Below the pieces are notes generated by a model. That model was not told the origin of the DNA. It saw nothing but the letters and a program-made list of their open reading frames with translations, and searched no databases. The position numbers and the translations under genes were made by a program. From the NCBI GenBank assembly GCA_030264375.1, contig JASCQW010000139.1, positions 17,488,686 to 17,552,685 of the forward strand: a stretch of 64,000 bases of DNA, given 5' to 3'. Below, piece by piece: positions 6,089-48,501 of this stretch. The DNA is from Carcharhinus longimanus. Lineage: Eukaryota. The stretch's first letter is position 1; each line of letters begins with the position of its first letter.

Positions 6089-8529
6089 AAGCCCAAGAGT
6101 CGGAACTGGGCAATGAATAGCAAATCACAAGCAATCACATTTCATCTTTTCTCTGGCTATCTGCACATTTCCCAACAGCAGCTTTCATATCAAAGCGACA
6201 AAAGATTGTTGCACAAAGTTAAACCTTGCCATTTATTACGTCAGTTAATGTCTTCCTTAAACATTGAGCCATCCTTTATAAATGCCCCGAGCCAATCTAA
6301 ATATGAACGTATCGTGTGAAGTTAACAAGTCATTTGAGAGTATCGAGAAATAAAGTGTAATTCCTTCTGACTTCACAGTACACCTGACGGCATTGCCCCC
6401 TGCAACAGCTTCTTCAGAATTTTATATTTCTTTCATTCAGCCAATGTTATTGTAGTGTTCTTTAGTGTTTCACTGAATTATTGCAAAAACAATCAACACA
6501 TTTTACAAGGTCAGTACGTCTTTCGATACTTTGATGAGTACTTTACCAAATGAAGAACAAGTAAAAAGATTCACAAAGGTTCATTTGACAAATTACTTTG
6601 CCTCTTACACTCAGCACAAACAAAATTCAGCAACTGAATCTGCCCAGTGCCAATGTAGTGGTTTTGGTTACTCCAGTTACATCATTAACTAGCAAGATTA
6701 GAGTGATAAAAAGTCCTTTTGTTTAACAATATTAAACTATGCACATTTACTTTTTTTTTTATATATACAAAACAGCACCCCAATACTGTATACCCGGGAC
6801 TTCAATTAAGGCTGGAAAATAATAAAAAAAGCTGTGCAAGTGTGCATACCTCATACTACAGAAGAATCTCATTCATCCAAGTTTCTTCCAATCTGTGGAG
6901 AGCGAAGTCCTCCCTATTTATCATTCCCTTCTCATCAAATAAGCTTTCCAGCATTTGAAAAAAAGCTGCATCCAAATCTGATTTCTGTTTCCCTATAACT
7001 GCATAGAGCCATTATTATCAACACTTTCTCTTCAAATAGGATATTTGTTCAGCTCACAAAATAAACATCACAACTTTAACTACATTGTACTCAGAACGTT
7101 CTTACTGATAATTTTTCCACTACCTATCACGTCTGTGGCCCACAAGTACATGGCAAGCGAGTAGTTAACATCAGGGTGCTGAAATCATTAGATTATATCA
7201 GTTCACCAGCCTGCAATGCCCCAAAACTTTCAGCACAAGACAAATGCTGGAGATGCTGCTTTTTCCACGTACAATGTTTCTGGAAGCAAATATACGGCCA
7301 ATTAATTTTCGTAGATAAAACGAAACAGTGGATCATTATTCTTATTCCAAGAATGAGAACAAGTGTCATGTAAATCAAGTCATGTATAGTAAAGGCCAAT
7401 CTTCTCTATTCACGACAATCATCTTCAGCAGGCTGAAACAATAAGAATGTGGCAAACTGAAAATGCCCCCACATTCTACGCCTAAAGTAATACGAAACCA
7501 TGTGTTGAAGGGGAATTTGCTGCACCCATCAGTTACTGTAGTATGGCCCAAGATAATATTGATATCCACTGGGTGTTGGAGGAGTGTTCAAACTTTGAAA
7601 CCATGGAACATCCAATACAGGGTAAAACAGCATTTTGAACCATTGCACAGTAATTTCTGTACTTTAATAAACCATCAATGAACTCACACTTTGATTTGTG
7701 ATCCTTGGGCTGGTCAATGTGAAAAATAGTGCCACTACTAAAGCAAAGCGTGAAGACTATATTATTATGGGATACAACTGTTTAACAAGATTCAACTGTT
7801 ATAAGGCACACAATGCACATAGATGCAATGGTACTGATGGTTGCCAGTTACAGTCACAGGTTCACAGTATTCTATACAAAAAAGGCACCCCACTACTTGT
7901 ATTTTTTCTAATGGTTTTTAGAACATCTATTGTCCTTCAGCCTCAGGTGATGGCAAAATGGATTGGTGAGTAACCCATTGATAATCCATATTAAAACTTA
8001 GGTGGTCTCGTACAAGTACTCTCAGCAACTTTCATGGTGTGGCTTTGCTTGCAGTCCGTTTTCATTTAACAGTTACTGGGTACATGAAGCTTTTGTTGCA
8101 CTGAACTTTTACATCATAGTGTTCATCAATAATGGTACGTTCGTAAAACAACTTATTTGTAGAAGAGTCAAGAATTCCAGTGTAACATAAACCGATGGTC
8201 GAGAAAGTAAATATTCACATCTTGCCAAAACGTTAAAAGTCGAAGATCATTTGCTATCACCGCATTGCGACTGTGTGTTTTGGCCATGTCATTATGTAGT
8301 GGTAGCAATTCTGATTAACTATAACTGGTGAGTCCTACCACAAAATTGGAAGTTTAAACTTTCCAGGAGCTTTCATCTATTGTGAAAGCTAATACAATCT
8401 ATTGCAGAAAAAAAATCCACAGTACTGAATCAGAATATGTACAGGGATTTCAGTTTGTTTTCAAAGAAAGATGCATGTTTTTAATCTCCCAAGCGTACTC
8501 CAAAAGAGGAATGTGAATGAAGTGCTTTA

Positions 8530-44700: not shown

Positions 44701-47423
44701 CACACAGTAAAAAGTCTGACAACACCAGATTTTAGTCCAACCTATTTATTTGATAATATACTCTCAAGCTTTNNNNNNNNNNNNNNNNNNNNNNNNNNNN
44801 NNNNNNNNNNNNNNNNNNNNNNNNNNNNNNNNNNNNNNNNNNNNNNNNNNNNNNNNNNNNNNNNNNNNNNNNTAAAACCTGGTGTTGTCAGACTTTTTAC
44901 TGTGTTTACGCCAGTCCAACGCCGGCATACCCACATCATGACTTGTCAACACACAACATAAACACACTCCAAAAAGAGGGGAAACACTAGCCTGCACCCC
45001 AGTCTCCATCCTCTGCTTTGCTGAAGTCAGTTGTAGTTCCACAACATCTTCAGCTGAGATGTAGGATAAGAGTACAATGGGAAATGGCTACAAAAAAAAC
45101 ACAAGTCACCAAGCATGTGGGCAGCAGTCAGACTTGGGGGCTAGGGAAGGGTAGTATGTCTGCTGCTCCCAGCAGAGTAAGGTCTCATATAAGTTTTGCT
45201 ACAAGGGATTCTAATGAGGTCCTCAATGGGATGGCATTTGGAAGAATGTGTGCAACAATTGCACACCAAAATGTTTGGTACAATGTCAAACCTGTCAGAC
45301 AGTTTTCTGTCTCTGTCAAAGAGCATGGAGCAGCCCAGCTCCCATTACTGCCACTCAGTGTCCTTGCCGTTGCACCTCAGCCAGCAATCCCAGGCTTCTG
45401 CTGCTAAGTATCCAAAGCTTGATGAATAATGGCTCAGAATACAAGAACAAGGAAGTTATGCTGTATAAGACACTAGTTAAAGCTTAGCTAGAATATTGTG
45501 TACAGTTCTGGATGCCACACTTAGGAAGAATGTGAATGCATTGCAGAGTGCAGAAGAGGTTTGGTTCCAGAGAAACTTCAGTTATGAAGACAGATTGGAG
45601 AAGTTACGACTGTTCTCTTTGGAGTGGAGAAGGCTAAGAAGAGAGCAGATAGTGTTCAAAATCATGAGGGTCTGGACAGAGTTGATAGGAAGAAACTTTT
45701 CCGACTCGTAAAAAGATCTAGAATATGAGGGCACAGATTTAAAGCGATTTGCACAAAAAGCTTTTTCAGATACTTCAAGAAAATGATACAAACAGAAGTC
45801 TTTCTTTTGTGTCCTTTCCTCAGCCATGCACCACCCGATTAATGCAAAGTGGTCATCAAGATGGAGACACTTCATGCAAGATTTTAAATTGAGATGACGA
45901 CCTCCACACAGATTTTACACCCTATCTACCCAACTTTCCCATAAACCATGAATTTAGGAAATAAACTCTGGTGTTACAGTGAAGTTTCCTCACTCACCCT
46001 CCCTCACCAAATCCCCTCATTTTCTTTTGCCAGATGTGTGTTAAATGGGGTAGTCATACCATATACTTCTAGCATTGAGAACCATTTTGCATCAGGGGAT
46101 GACAAAATGCTAACCATTAACCGTCTAGTTTCTATTGGAATTTAACTGGACTGAAATAGAATGCAATAATGCCAGTGCACACTTGTTGAATTTATCCTTC
46201 TCTTGAGGATTAGGCCACTCATATTTTACTGTTTTAAGCATTTTTGAGCCATGTCTATTTTAGAAAGTTCAAATGTCAGCATATTTTTGCAGTTACATGG
46301 GAAATGAAGTGACAAGACCCCAGTGGCTTGACTTTTTGCGGGGAAGACTATGTAATGGAATCTAACAATCAAAGGAAATTGTTTCTTTTGCTGCAGTACG
46401 TCTGAAAAAGCACAAAGTTCAAATGTGCAACATATTAATTTCTCATGGTCAGCTTCCTGTTAAGAATTTAGTAGCAATACACTTCTATAGAATTGTTGTC
46501 AAGTACTTTGCAAATATGGTATAACTTGCAAAATAAGTTTAGATCTAAAAAGCTAAACAGTTGGGTATCAAATCTGGGGAACAGTTAAAAATGACAAAAA
46601 TGATAGCACAAAATATTTCACAGTCAAGTAGATAAATGAAGTGGCAAAACAAAATTAAGATCGAGAGACATGTGTGTGCATGCTATTGAAACTACTCTAA
46701 TATTCAACTGAAAGAGTAACAGTTTTTTTGGGTTATAAACAAGTAACTTGATGGTTTTAATCATTGATTACCAATTAATACAGCAGGCCAGTCTAGTCAC
46801 CATAATGAGAAAACTTTCAGTACAGTGCCATCTCACTTCCATCAAAGACAAATATAAGCAAAGGGGCTCAATCAAGTTTGAAAACATTAAGACAAAATAG
46901 TGTCTGAAAAGACCTCATTAAGATGAGCAAGTGGCCCAGCTTGCTATAACGTGTAGCTTTGTATCTGTGATTTTAAACTCAGGAACATCCCAAATTTCAA
47001 CTGCACTGTCAGGTGGGCTAGGCAGACATCATCAAAATCACAAAGACTCACTCACACACCTTCCTAATGGCCAGTTTCACTGTAACAGGATGGGCAAAAC
47101 TTAAAGAAACAACTGCAGCGTGAATTTGAAAACTTGAAACTGGCTGATGTCTCTTCTCTTTTACTCAACATTCATTCTTTCCTGTTATAATGTATAACAT
47201 AATAGACACAAATATACATACAATACTTTAAGAAATATATGAGCTTTACATACATGCATTACCTTAGACATGATAAACACAAGCAAAAATATATATTCAA
47301 CTGATACTCTTGTATTTTAACATACCTGGTTCCTAGTTGCAGAATATTCAGGATTGACCGGAAGGAAAGGCACAGCACTGCGCTCAGTCACTAATGTGCT
47401 ATGATTCTGAGTGGCCAGCCACA
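8530..47423 (-). CDS. GIT1: ARF GTPase-activating protein GIT1, 5'-partial spliced CDS: join(47423-47326, 37905-37794, 35258-35107, 28423-28271, 21228-21010, 19600-19517, 13301-13225, 11508-11335, 9760-9697, 8742-8530)
   Basis: Manual splicing gives one open frame of 1346 nt (2 nt + 448 codons including stop) with consistent phases. Peptides match recalled vertebrate GIT1 (TERSAVPFLPVNPEYSATRNQ; C-terminus VTITTREKKQ*) rather than GIT2. Confidence 0.96.
9697..9760 (-). CDS. GIT1: GIT1 exon, 64 nt, FVPCSEKIHSAVTEMASLFPK
   Basis: Acceptor ttttacag|, donor AAG|gtaagg, phase 2 to 0. Confidence 0.97.
9960..11090 (-). mobile_element. Highly decayed L2-like LINE remnant
   Basis: Strong purine skew on the + strand and faint RT-like words (plus-strand gtcaaacatcaaggtgatga). 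Similar in character to 39550-40800. No intact ORF. Confidence 0.4.
11129..11188. repeat. Perfect 2 x 30 bp tandem duplication (tgccatgtaaataattaataaatagctgcc)
   Basis: Identical units at 11129-11158 and 11159-11188. Confidence 0.95.
11335..11508 (-). CDS. GIT1: GIT1 exon, 174 nt, IADGRMGRDDDFHLE...LDPSLPSTEDVILKTEQVTKNIQELLRAAQECKHE(S), start of paxillin-binding domain
   Basis: Lies within ORF 11199..11594(-). Acceptor ctttaatag|, donor AAG|gttagt, phase 2-2. Confidence 0.95.
13225..13301 (-). CDS. GIT1: GIT1 exon, 77 nt, VSKLDKRGSGTDSDYDNTQTNELPL(G)
   Basis: Acceptor catttacag|, donor GGG|gtgagt. Conserved GSGxDSDY[D/E]NTQ motif; phase 0 to 2. Confidence 0.95.
13955..14248 (+). mobile_element. 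HE1-type SINE
   Basis: cagtggtt...ccagggacccaggttcaattc...gcactgtagggattctattctgtgattcta. Confidence 0.88.
16591..16805. mobile_element. Palindromic Penelope-derived (MITE-like) element
   Basis: Perfect 15 bp inverted arms at 16616-16630 and 16723-16737 within longer imperfect arms. Central aggtc-atc-gacct-gaaa resembles a hammerhead stem II remnant. Confidence 0.7.
19517..19600 (-). CDS. GIT1: GIT1 exon, 84 nt, IRRGVSVTSVPFPFSPLHSCSQDCGRSV
   Basis: Aligns to recalled human IRKGVSASAVPFTPSSPLLSCSQEGSRHT. Acceptor ccatgttacag|. The donor GTG|gttaagt is atypical, so the 3' border is less certain. Confidence 0.88.
21010..21228 (-). CDS. GIT1: GIT1 exon, 219 nt, INKLQTENAQMKQ...RRDRQAVSMYE...RLQPLDCN
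   Basis: Lies within ORF 21001..21324(-). Acceptor aatttcag|, donor AAT|gtgagt. GIT1-type RRDRQAxSMYE and TRLQP motifs. Confidence 0.95.
22541..23600 (-). mobile_element. CR1 LINE 3' fragment, interrupted by a SINE and a gap
   Basis: ORF 23196..23558(-) has QLEYCVQF...SYVDRLAKL...LRGDLMEVFKI, typical of the CR1 ORF2 C-terminus. attct-type tail near 22541. Confidence 0.8.
22785..23144 (-). mobile_element. HE1-type SINE nested in CR1
   Basis: Head tggtggcacagtggttagcactgctg, central domain and ctgtagggattctg tail on the minus strand. Confidence 0.88.
24703..24991 (-). mobile_element. V-SINE with HE1-like head but an alternative 3' tail
   Basis: Same tRNA head and centre as the HE1 copies; tail is ...aacttcatggtagtattaatgtaagcctacttgcgacactaaaataaactt. 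Confidence 0.82.
26266..26631 (+). mobile_element. Second tRNA-derived SINE family (head and tail shared with LINE family A)
   Basis: A box tggcctagtgg at 26276-26286, B box gattcaaatcc at 26339-26349, tail gggcaataaatgctgg...aatgaataaaaaataaa. Confidence 0.82.
26998..27400 (-). mobile_element. Second copy of the family-A-linked SINE, opposite orientation
   Basis: Plus-strand ccagcatttattgcccatcc and agtcaaccacattgctgtg are reverse complements of the tail and body of 26266-26631. Confidence 0.8.
27706..27793 (+). mobile_element. HE1-type SINE 3' tail fragment
   Basis: gggatagggcctgggcgggattgtt...ctgtagggattctatgattatga. Confidence 0.75.
28271..28423 (-). CDS. GIT1: GIT1 exon, 153 nt, SMDSSDLSDGPITLQEYLEVKKALAASEAKVQQLMKVNNNLSEELRRLQMQ, coiled coil
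   Basis: Lies within ORF 28253..28576(-). Acceptor gacgttaag|, donor CAG|gtgagt, phase 0-0. Confidence 0.96.
28539..28613 (-). mobile_element. CR1 3' tail running into a gap
   Basis: acataagaacataagaaataggagcaggagtagacc is the reverse complement of a (ttcttatg)n CR1-type tail. Confidence 0.75.
29158..29218. mobile_element. Penelope-like terminal repeat running into a gap
   Basis: gtaaaaagtctgacaacaccaggttttagtccaacc is near-identical to 44707-44742. Confidence 0.7.
29770..32330 (-). mobile_element. CR1-group LINE (family A) with both ends present and internal deletions: tRNA-like head, APE endonuclease, RT, 3' tail
   Basis: ORF fragments 31833..32015 and 31633..31830 (LINIWG..., ELYLTVNV..., GGTVVY: endonuclease-like) and 30322..30630 (WKIAQMCPV...NYHPISLLSIISK...QFGF: RT). 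A GVPQGSVLGPT-like motif lies near 30130-30150. Many frameshifts. Confidence 0.88.
33825..34062 (-). mobile_element. V-SINE with alternative tail, 5'-truncated
   Basis: Shares tagtgtcgcaagtaggcttacattaa...gaaaatctcctag with 24703-24991. Confidence 0.82.
34430..35013. repeat. Long imperfect inverted repeat (foldback/MITE-like)
   Basis: 34445-34610 is clearly reverse-complementary to 34826-34995 (tcttgctcaaaaa / tttttgagcaaga; atattcattttactac / gtagtaaaatgaatat). Confidence 0.88.
35107..35258 (-). CDS. GIT1: GIT1 exon, 152 nt, (E)NIDYLLRNQNDRPDSDFGDDQHDYDSVASDEDTDAELHRNASSARNNRAK
   Basis: Acceptor tttttacccag|, donor AAG|gtgaga. Contains the conserved DDQHDYDSVASDEDTD motif; phase 1 to 0. 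Confidence 0.96.
35905..36470 (-). mobile_element. Decayed 3' end of LINE family A
   Basis: atttattgtccac...ggtggtgact...ttcctgaatcgctgcagtcc resembles the reverse-complemented family A tail (compare 59650-60066). Confidence 0.6.
37794..37905 (-). CDS. GIT1: GIT1 exon, 112 nt, GRQKLARFNAREFATLIIDILSDAKRRQHGKTLGSPI, second Spa2-homology repeat
   Basis: Acceptor cttttcag|, donor TTG|gtaagt, phase 0 to 1. Confidence 0.97.
39292..39548 (-). mobile_element. V-SINE with alternative tail
   Basis: aaagtttatttattagtgtcacaagtaggcttacattaacactgca... through a tRNA head containing ggaatcgaacc. Confidence 0.82.
39550..40800 (-). mobile_element. Decayed L2-like LINE remnant
   Basis: Purine-rich plus strand beginning ttaaaggagagagggaggtagaaaggcagaggggttta, as expected for a reverse-oriented L2 3' region. 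No intact ORF. Confidence 0.5.
42370..43635 (+). mobile_element. CR1 LINE fragment (RT to 3' tail)
   Basis: ORF 42438..42746 (IFQNSLDSGKVP...AGNCRPVSQTSVLGK...SQH..VKGK.CLTN) and ORF 43317..43514 (SRVRGHSIKI...WNSFP). Tail ctcctgcacctatttgtgatcttatga. Confidence 0.88.
44702..44940. mobile_element. Penelope-like element with inverted termini spanning a gap
   Basis: 33 bp inverted repeat at 44702-44734 / 44873-44905 (1 mismatch), followed by ccagtccaacgccggcatacccacatc. Confidence 0.78.
45430..45770 (+). mobile_element. CR1 LINE fragment
   Basis: EYKNKEVMLYKTLV and SYEDRLEKLRLFSLEWRRLR motifs in ORFs 45248..45487 and 45496..45711. Confidence 0.8.
47326..47423 (-). CDS. GIT1: GIT1 exon, 98 nt, (V)WLATQNHSTLVTERSAVPFLPVNPEYSATRNQ, Spa2-homology region
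   Basis: Acceptor tttgtag|, donor CAG|gtatgt. Peptide matches recalled human GIT1. Confidence 0.97.
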
Positions 47424-47579
47424 CTACAAATACAGCAAGACAATAATATTAGTGAGCATGAAACTGTCCATTGAAAATAGTATTTTACAAGCACCAGTGA
47501 ACAATGTGTGCTTTATAAACAAATAAGCTTGCCAGAGAAGTGCTCAGCTGGACAATTTATGCTTCTACTCTCCTACAAC

Positions 47580-47619
47580 ATTGCTTCTCGGCCTTTTGGC
47601 TAAAATCAAGTATAGTATC
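47580..47619 (+). pseudogene. U2 snRNA 5' fragment (nt 1-40)
   Basis: attgcttctcggccttttggctaaaatcaagtatagtatc matches recalled U2 ATCGCTTCTCGGCCTTTTGGCTAAGATCAAGTGTAGTATC at 37/40 positions. Similarity stops at nt 40. Confidence 0.93.
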
Positions 47620-47690
47620 AACATGCTGCGCTTGGTTGAAGCCATTAGGTTACATTTCAGCTTCATTTGAAGCAATTTTTTAAAGCGGCA

Positions 47691-47726
47691 TCTCGGCCTT
47701 TTGGCTAAGTTGCAAATTAGATCAAG
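47691..47726 (+). pseudogene. Second, interrupted U2 snRNA fragment
   Basis: tctcggccttttggctaag (U2 nt 7-25, exact) at 47691-47709, then agatcaag (U2 nt 24-31) at 47719-47726. Confidence 0.85.
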
Positions 47727-48501
47727 CCTTGGAGGAGCTGCTACACCTACTCCAATCAGCTTGGATCATGTAGATCAAGCCCAAGACAGGAGGTGAGAGC
47801 CCTGTCTTGTCAGCTTNNNNNNNNNNNNNNNNNNNNNNNNNNNNNNNNNNNNNNNNNNNNNNNNNNNNNNNNNNNNNNNNNNNNNNNNNNNNNNNNNNNN
47901 NNNNNNNNNNNNNNNNCCTATTTCTTATGTTCTTATGTCTTAAATCAATAGGTTGATTAATGCAATTAGCTGAAAGAGGTTTAGAATACAGATAGGGTTA
48001 AATTTACACTTGTTCACATTTATGTTAGTAGGCCATTCATGAACACACTTAAGTGATTCTGTGGAAGGTATAAAGATTTATTGGTATACTGGTTTGAGAC
48101 TTCATGGTCAAACATTAAGATCCTCCAGGATTTTCAGCATCCTCTAGTGGTAAAAACATACAATGCATTTAGTTCACTTTACTCCACATTTACTCCAATT
48201 GAGACCTTCACAAAATATAATTTAGAAGACAGTGGACCATGAAATTATCAGCCTGGTGGTTTGTCTTCCCTGAAGCAATGGGGGAGATTTATAGCAGGCC
48301 ATGCTGAAACTCCACTTTGCAGCAGATCAAAAGGTGGCAATAACTTTTAATTTCCAGTGTATGTTCATAATTCTCAATGTTATGCAGCAATACAAGAAAC
48401 ATCAAGACGTCTTTCAATTTTATTTTTTGACTAAAAGGCTCAAGCTTAATGATTTCCCCCCCCCCATCAAAGACCCTGACCCAAATTTTGCAGTGAGTGG
48501 C

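Follow-up and report, generated by a model that had tools for sequence, protein, structure and literature searches.

Here, we describe a SINE headed by U2 snRNA from the shark Carcharhinus longimanus, recognized in a window of 64,000 nucleotides (contig JASCQW010000139.1, positions 17,488,686 to 17,552,685; the coordinates below are those of the window, and family positions are those of the aligned SINE). It is near certain that this element is a real, dispersed, poly(A)-tailed retroposon family and not a single oddity. From sequence comparisons, the SINE is probably copied by a Keno-like LINE of the Tx1 type, and probably transcribed from candidate masters that would lie inside U2 genes. An earlier note on the window had proposed a U2-headed retroposon family of sharks, and this proposal is borne out by thousands of copies that share head and tail and by a host gene, GIT1, with exons nearest to shark proteins.

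The window copy (47580..47816, forward strand) comprises the 5' 237 nt of the SINE, as delimited by family matches and an alignment of 26 copies, and is 96% identical to the family majority. The last ~70-75 nt and the A tail are missing from it, lost within or ahead of an assembly gap of nominally 100 N (47817..47916). From 5' to 3', the SINE is laid out as a head of U2 nt 1-40, an antisense arm, a second U2 piece (nt 4-27), two similar hairpin units, a last hairpin and the tail. In the window, the head (47580..47619, +) is identical at 37 of 40 positions to U2 gene L031, a reference taken from an Rfam search of the genome, and the family-majority head matches that gene at 40/40 bases. Rfam reports U2 for the window copy with an E value of 5e-6, at a score under the gathering score and with the U2 model covering 190 nt; a full SINE copy gave no Rfam family other than U2. 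The head is followed by the fold-back arm (47622..47651, +) and by the second U2 piece (47688..47711, +), which in the family has one mismatch over nt 4-27 and in the window is exact over nt 7-25 (47691-47709). Hairpin units A (47718..47767, +) and B (47771..47816, +; truncated by the gap) both open with U2 nt 24-31, within an 11-mer that occurs at 47718 and again at 47771, and unit B contains a perfect 9-bp inner stem (47782-47809). The head, second U2 piece, repeated 11-mer and 9-bp hairpin had all been described in the earlier note, and its coordinates hold on re-check. In most copies, an octamer motif of the snRNA enhancer type forms where the second U2 piece ends (family nt 131-138; 47710-47717, mutated here), and it may have arisen by chance.

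The SINE is inserted antisense in GIT1, in the intron preceding the exon at 47326..47427 (- strand; 97% to shark GIT1 by tblastn) and ~150 nt away from it. Ten GIT1 exon matches lie on the - strand between 8533 and 47427, with the earlier exons past the window end. When compared to 14 GIT1 proteins, these exons match sharks best (94-96% for five sharks over 444 aligned residues), versus 80% for Danio and 73% for gar on fewer aligned residues, and a crocodilian origin, as for the snRNA-headed SINEU-1/-2/-3, was rejected on this basis. Through the insertion, the GIT1 pre-mRNA gains 40 nt complementary to the U2 5' end, ~150-190 nt ahead of the 3' splice site.

The ~70 nt behind the head had been regarded as unrelated to U2, a description that does not stand, as U2 nt 11-39 recur in them in antisense orientation. 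In the family majority, this arm is identical to the exact antisense at 18/29 positions and forms 25 predicted pairs; of the 11 departures, seven are A-to-G or C-to-T changes that give G-U pairs and the other four are confined to two small loops. When the arm alone was shuffled against a fixed head, 0/1000 sequences folded equally well. The window copy as a whole has a fold z of -4.05 (0/200 shuffles) and a full copy a z of -4.06. The arm is predicted to pair across the branch-point-pairing bases of the U2 head. No two-sided changes were seen in the arm among the copies. In the last hairpin, one such change, which separates subfamilies, keeps the pairing (C-G in 22 copies, T-A in 20). A U2 origin was also considered for the 3' body, where family nt ~222-285 appear collinear by eye with U2 nt 39-105, with matching hairpin arms; the best comparison was reached by 20/1500 shuffles and the others by 99-710/1500, which is not significant given the number of comparisons, and this origin is suggestive only.

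Beyond the gap, positions 47917..47937 (+) carry two TTCTTATG units (47922-47937), presumably a CR1-type tail, from which the earlier note had derived a CR1-mobilised SINE with a (TTCTTATG)n tail. The units are present, and in the same orientation as the SINE, but they are not its own tail: none of 73 family ends has TTCTTATG within 90 nt of the SINE 3' end, and the 21 bases after the gap stand behind a different, unrelated repeat in 13/13 other readable places. Such CR1-type-tailed repeats are also inserted into SINE copies (L100, L161). Mobilization by CR1 is therefore hardly credible. No contig bridges 47817-47916 among those listed from four public runs (at most two samples), and public contigs that end loose at 47816 continue like family copies elsewhere.

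A search of the genome with the 237-nt query yielded 3,025 candidates, and 40/40 of those scored match, 39 other places with 93-95% identity across 226-237 nt. Exact genome hits number 1,373 for an internal 18-mer and 1,065 for the head/body junction, with 0 for either reversed control. The non-U2 parts are not single-copy, whereas single-copy non-U2 parts would have refuted the proposal according to the earlier note. The copy number is roughly ~6,900-7,000, a crude estimate from the overlap of the 18-mer and junction sets on one contig (77 x 55 / 11), scaled, in which copies broken by gaps are a source of error. Aligned copies define a unit of ~308-315 nt that ends in AATAAA (family nt 302) and an A-rich tail. 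The 5' limit of the family is U2 nt 1: 30 unselected head-bearing copies start between U2 nt 1 and 26, 18 of them at nt 9 or less. Target site duplications (TSDs) of 10 nt or more flank 7/44 complete copies, compared to 9/300 mismatched control pairs, and are thus visible in a minority. A shared 5' end, a shared 3' tail and, in some copies, TSDs, which the earlier note had put forward as a check on a family, are therefore all found. Identity to the majority is 79-98% among 63 aligned copies, with a median of 95% that is skewed by the choice of best hits for alignment, and at least three subfamily patterns can be told apart by eye among them. All told, the SINE is short (<500 nt) and non-coding, with a 3' A-rich tail and one common structure, and is not a set of independent chimeras. 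When the flanks of 30 copies were compared all against all, no single common target emerged, and dispersed sites have only a weak T bias (26/49 versus 19 expected) and otherwise no target preference. Head-to-tail tandems of the SINE occur in L005 and L106, and an apparent U3 piece, recognized by eye, precedes the head in L006. Of the public sequencing runs listed as containing SINE sequence (19 runs from 8 studies and 7 organisms), none is recorded as RNA.

The partner of the SINE is likely a 5.2-kb LINE, which we take to be Tx1-type on its domain architecture. It was found by a zf-RVT search (145 matches, 30 fetched, mostly one LINE family) and then walked upstream; the long 'open frames' met in that search are assembly gaps. 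The LINE encodes an ORF1 with ZCCHC3-type RNA-binding domains, a reverse transcriptase (RT) and zf-RVT. Most of its close relatives are ORF2 proteins with endonuclease, RT and zf-RVT that carry PF03372, none of them named Keno, and a Pfam search with fragments of its endonuclease gave no hit. A complete copy (L152) has a 14-15 bp TSD around a head of U2 nt 10-35, and U2 pieces are present at 21/30 LINE 5' ends. Copies of one LINE subfamily (L194, L195, L196, L202, L208) begin with U1 and U3 pieces, behind which stand U2 nt 38-52; the U3 and U1 pieces were confirmed by Rfam in L194, L195 and L202. No common tail of SINE and LINE was found by BLAST, and the U2 head is the only sequence that they have in common.

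SINE and LINE are also found next to one another. The SINE lies within 30 nt behind 7/34 distinct LINE 3' ends (from 44 rows, after merging 8 duplicates and dropping one SINE-selected and one flankless row) and directly ahead of 3/30 LINE 5' ends, where chance would give approximately one adjacency per ten thousand ends (for some thousands of copies in 2.7 Gb). In L150, one 20-bp duplication flanks the LINE, with a SINE right after that is not followed by the duplication. In L155, a single duplication stands on both sides of a SINE that has a LINE tail ahead of it. A single RT complex that primes serially at one site would account for such tandems. The insertion sites of L155 and L183 are unrelated and have ~15 nt of flank in common, perhaps from a common target repeat.

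Both elements meet again at one position of the U2 gene. A search for an A-run followed by U2 nt 38-51 gave nine hits, with the SINE ahead by BLAST in three (L161, L164, L166), the LINE tail by BLAST in three (L160, L163, L167), a short tail remnant by eye in two (L162, L165) and a U2 nt 1-37 piece in L159. A control that allowed joins from ~nt 28 to 42 gave 42 matches at 12 loci, 10 of which join at nt 38/39 and none at 28-37. Joins at nt 38/39 added by this control are SINE L172 and LINE L177, which brings the LINE 3' ends so joined to L160, L163, L167 and L177; L257 was added from the unselected sample. Base 38 of U2 is an A and merges with the element tail, and U2 downstream of Utopia is reported to start at nt 39, with an identical site for Keno (PMC4640811, in the portion used here). 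By these matches, SINE and LINE are joined to U2 at the published Keno/Utopia site. Canonical-type and variant-type U2 both lie downstream of joins, which argues for more than one event. Short internal U2 pieces, from nt 38 to 48-57, also stand between elements (L159, L164, L187, L194-196, L257); they have the length of a TSD, which would favour DNA cutting over template switching. At unselected sites, U2 nt 39-44 follow the tail in 0/49 SINE and 0/20 LINE copies, by a pattern that missed L257. In L161, a 5S rRNA copy (1969-2087) abuts the head of the SINE joined to variant U2 at nt 38, and this SINE is interrupted at its nt 40 by another repeat. The earlier note had offered a relic of a U2-targeting element as its second option: the tie to such elements remains, but what is found is no relic, rather a non-autonomous family with some copies at the Keno/Utopia site.

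Upstream sequence of U2 genes provides a further link. In L159 and L177, a LINE tail runs into variant U2 from nt 38 to its end, a ~220-nt spacer and the 5' part of the next U2. Of seven matches to the spacer, three continue without a break into one of the elements: L216 and L218 enter a full SINE at U2 nt 1, behind 125-165 nt of spacer, and L203 enters the 5' end of a LINE. These three are dispersed copies that appear to point to a source locus in the U2 array and are not that locus itself. The spacer in L216 and L218 is from transcripts begun upstream of U2 +1, which counts against the master model. A whole master, with upstream spacer, SINE and U2 nt 38 to its end, was not seen at any one locus, and neither SINE nor LINE follows the upstream sequence of two further U2 genes (4 and 2 matches). 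The assembly contains several divergent types of U2, and U5 and U2 genes alternate in L032 and L034. U2 retrocopies (L035-L044, L049) reach ~40 nt beyond the mature end and terminate at nearly the same position, as would be expected of copies of a 3'-extended precursor.

These observations are probably best accommodated by the following sequence of events. The LINE endonuclease would still cut U2 genes at the Keno site, with most of its cuts elsewhere. A SINE placed inside a U2 gene would be transcribed by Pol II under the U2 promoter, and the first bases of the gene would renew its head; AATAAA would then supply the tail of the RNA. LINE RT would copy this RNA to new sites, where the promoterless copies would decay. 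By folding over the head, the antisense arm would block pairing of the RNA with branch sites or U6, and such masking would make high SINE expression tolerable. In its fullest form, with Keno-site insertion, the U2 promoter and first bases as head, and an arm evolved to spare the spliceosome, the SINE would be a homing parasite of snRNA genes, to which we give slightly less than even chances.

The same family and partner could also have obtained the U2 head by RT template switching onto U2 RNA, with transcription from the host promoters that happen to flank a few masters and the U2-site copies as side products. Since U1, U3 and 5S pieces also stand ahead of LINE or SINE copies, template switching or small-RNA capture can add heads without a U2 promoter; U1 and U3 pieces head a LINE subfamily, and the 5S gene abuts the head in L161. 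An extra U2 piece at 4/69 SINE 5' ends, the fusion of a SINE 5' part to a truncated LINE in L138, and L172, which stops where U2 retrocopies stop and could be an RNA-level chimera, are in keeping with such switching. Against it, 10 of 12 joins cluster at nt 38/39, a known DNA cut site, the TSD-length internal U2 pieces (L159, L164, L187, L194-196, L257) would need two switches each, and the spacer-led L216, L218 and L203 need a source locus in the U2 array. We consider this origin of the head unlikely.

Transcription by Pol III, with the second U2 piece and repeated 11-mer serving as an A-box-like/B-box-like internal promoter, appears very improbable. Both 11-mers (family nt 141 and 194) fit a B-box consensus, an 8-nt A-box-like match occurs at family nt 18 and 123, and a few copies start near nt 97-120. 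A fuller A-box pattern matches nothing, however, and T-runs of 4-6 (at family nt 15, 97 and 120) occur within the unit. Among unselected copies whose 5' end can be read, most have the head upstream of the box-like motifs, and the B-box-like motif arises incidentally from U2 nt 24-31. A tRNA-derived Pol III SINE was likewise rejected, with no tRNA head, internal T-runs and only B-box-like matches; no tRNA was detected in the window. Less probable again is that the copies are a sum of independent chimeric U2 retrocopies, or a functional family of variant snRNA genes. The 190-nt span of the Rfam U2 model and a U-rich run at the Sm-site position of that model speak for this reading, and are opposed by thousands of copies with one internal structure that form subfamilies, by the lack of an Sm-site consensus match, and by the decay of the copies (79-98% to the majority, 63 aligned). 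The preferred reading remains a SINE copied by the LINE and probably transcribed from U2 genes.

The shark SINE fits the description of the SINEU class, and its likeness to SINEU-1/-2/-3 of crocodilians is one of build. In the portions of Kojima 2015 used here (PMC4494074), SINEUs likewise have an snRNA head, a length under 500 nt, poly(A) and internal T-runs, have gained U2 pieces repeatedly and occur as tandems around a TSD; their Tx1 partners (Tx1-Mar) have U1 or U2 heads, and SINEU-1 shares no tail with its LINE. Those portions state that SINEU was not found outside crocodilians, propose RT template switching onto snRNA as the source of the head, and treat transcription as an open question, with snRNA promoters lying upstream of the RNA and flanking promoters suggested (PMC4494074). 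The families differ in target, a Mariner element (Mariner-N4_AMi) for SINEU (PMC4494074) and U2 nt 38/39 as one site of the shark SINE, and the shark SINE has the antisense arm on its head and, in some copies, the U2 upstream spacer.

Circumstantial evidence that a Tx1-clade LINE would mobilise the shark SINE is strong, and consists of the U2 site in common, the 7/34 tandems and the U2 heads. R2 has rDNA-resident non-autonomous elements. It also resembles the shark SINE as a promoterless element transcribed with its target gene, by co-transcription for R2 (PMC4494074, in part) and as proposed here for the SINE; unlike R2, the SINE has a Pol II snRNA gene as target, and most of its copies are dispersed. 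The partner LINE has domains of the same type as Keno, of the Tx1 clade, and is joined to the same U2 position, including inside U2 tandem units, yet Keno is described as U2-specific in the portions of the sources used (PMC4494074, PMC4640811), whereas the partner LINE is abundant and mostly dispersed, with 0/20 unselected tails at the U2 site. Utopia uses the same U2 site, with 20-bp TSDs in reptile families, but encodes a restriction-like endonuclease (PMC4640811, in part), whereas domain order and relatives indicate an APE-RT-zf-RVT type for the partner LINE. No snRNA-headed SINE of sharks was found in the open literature searched, and the family may already be catalogued in Repbase or Dfam; the portions of PMC5381603, PMC7245038 and PMC10886601 used here added no shark case.

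In that literature, snRNA-headed SINEs were previously reported only from crocodilians. Automatic annotation may label copies of the shark SINE as U2 genes, as two copies pass the Rfam U2 cut-off. The partner LINE would represent a Tx1 lineage with site specificity that has dispersed throughout the genome and yet continues to insert into U2. For the puzzle of SINEU transcription, the shark family offers a concrete route, in which a partner LINE with a retained Keno site would place masters in U2 genes, and the U2 gene itself is likely the promoter donor. If the SINE is indeed a homing parasite of snRNA genes, sharks would have evolved, independently, a class of SINEs driven by snRNA promoters and Pol II, and the SINEU of crocodilians may be explained in the same way.
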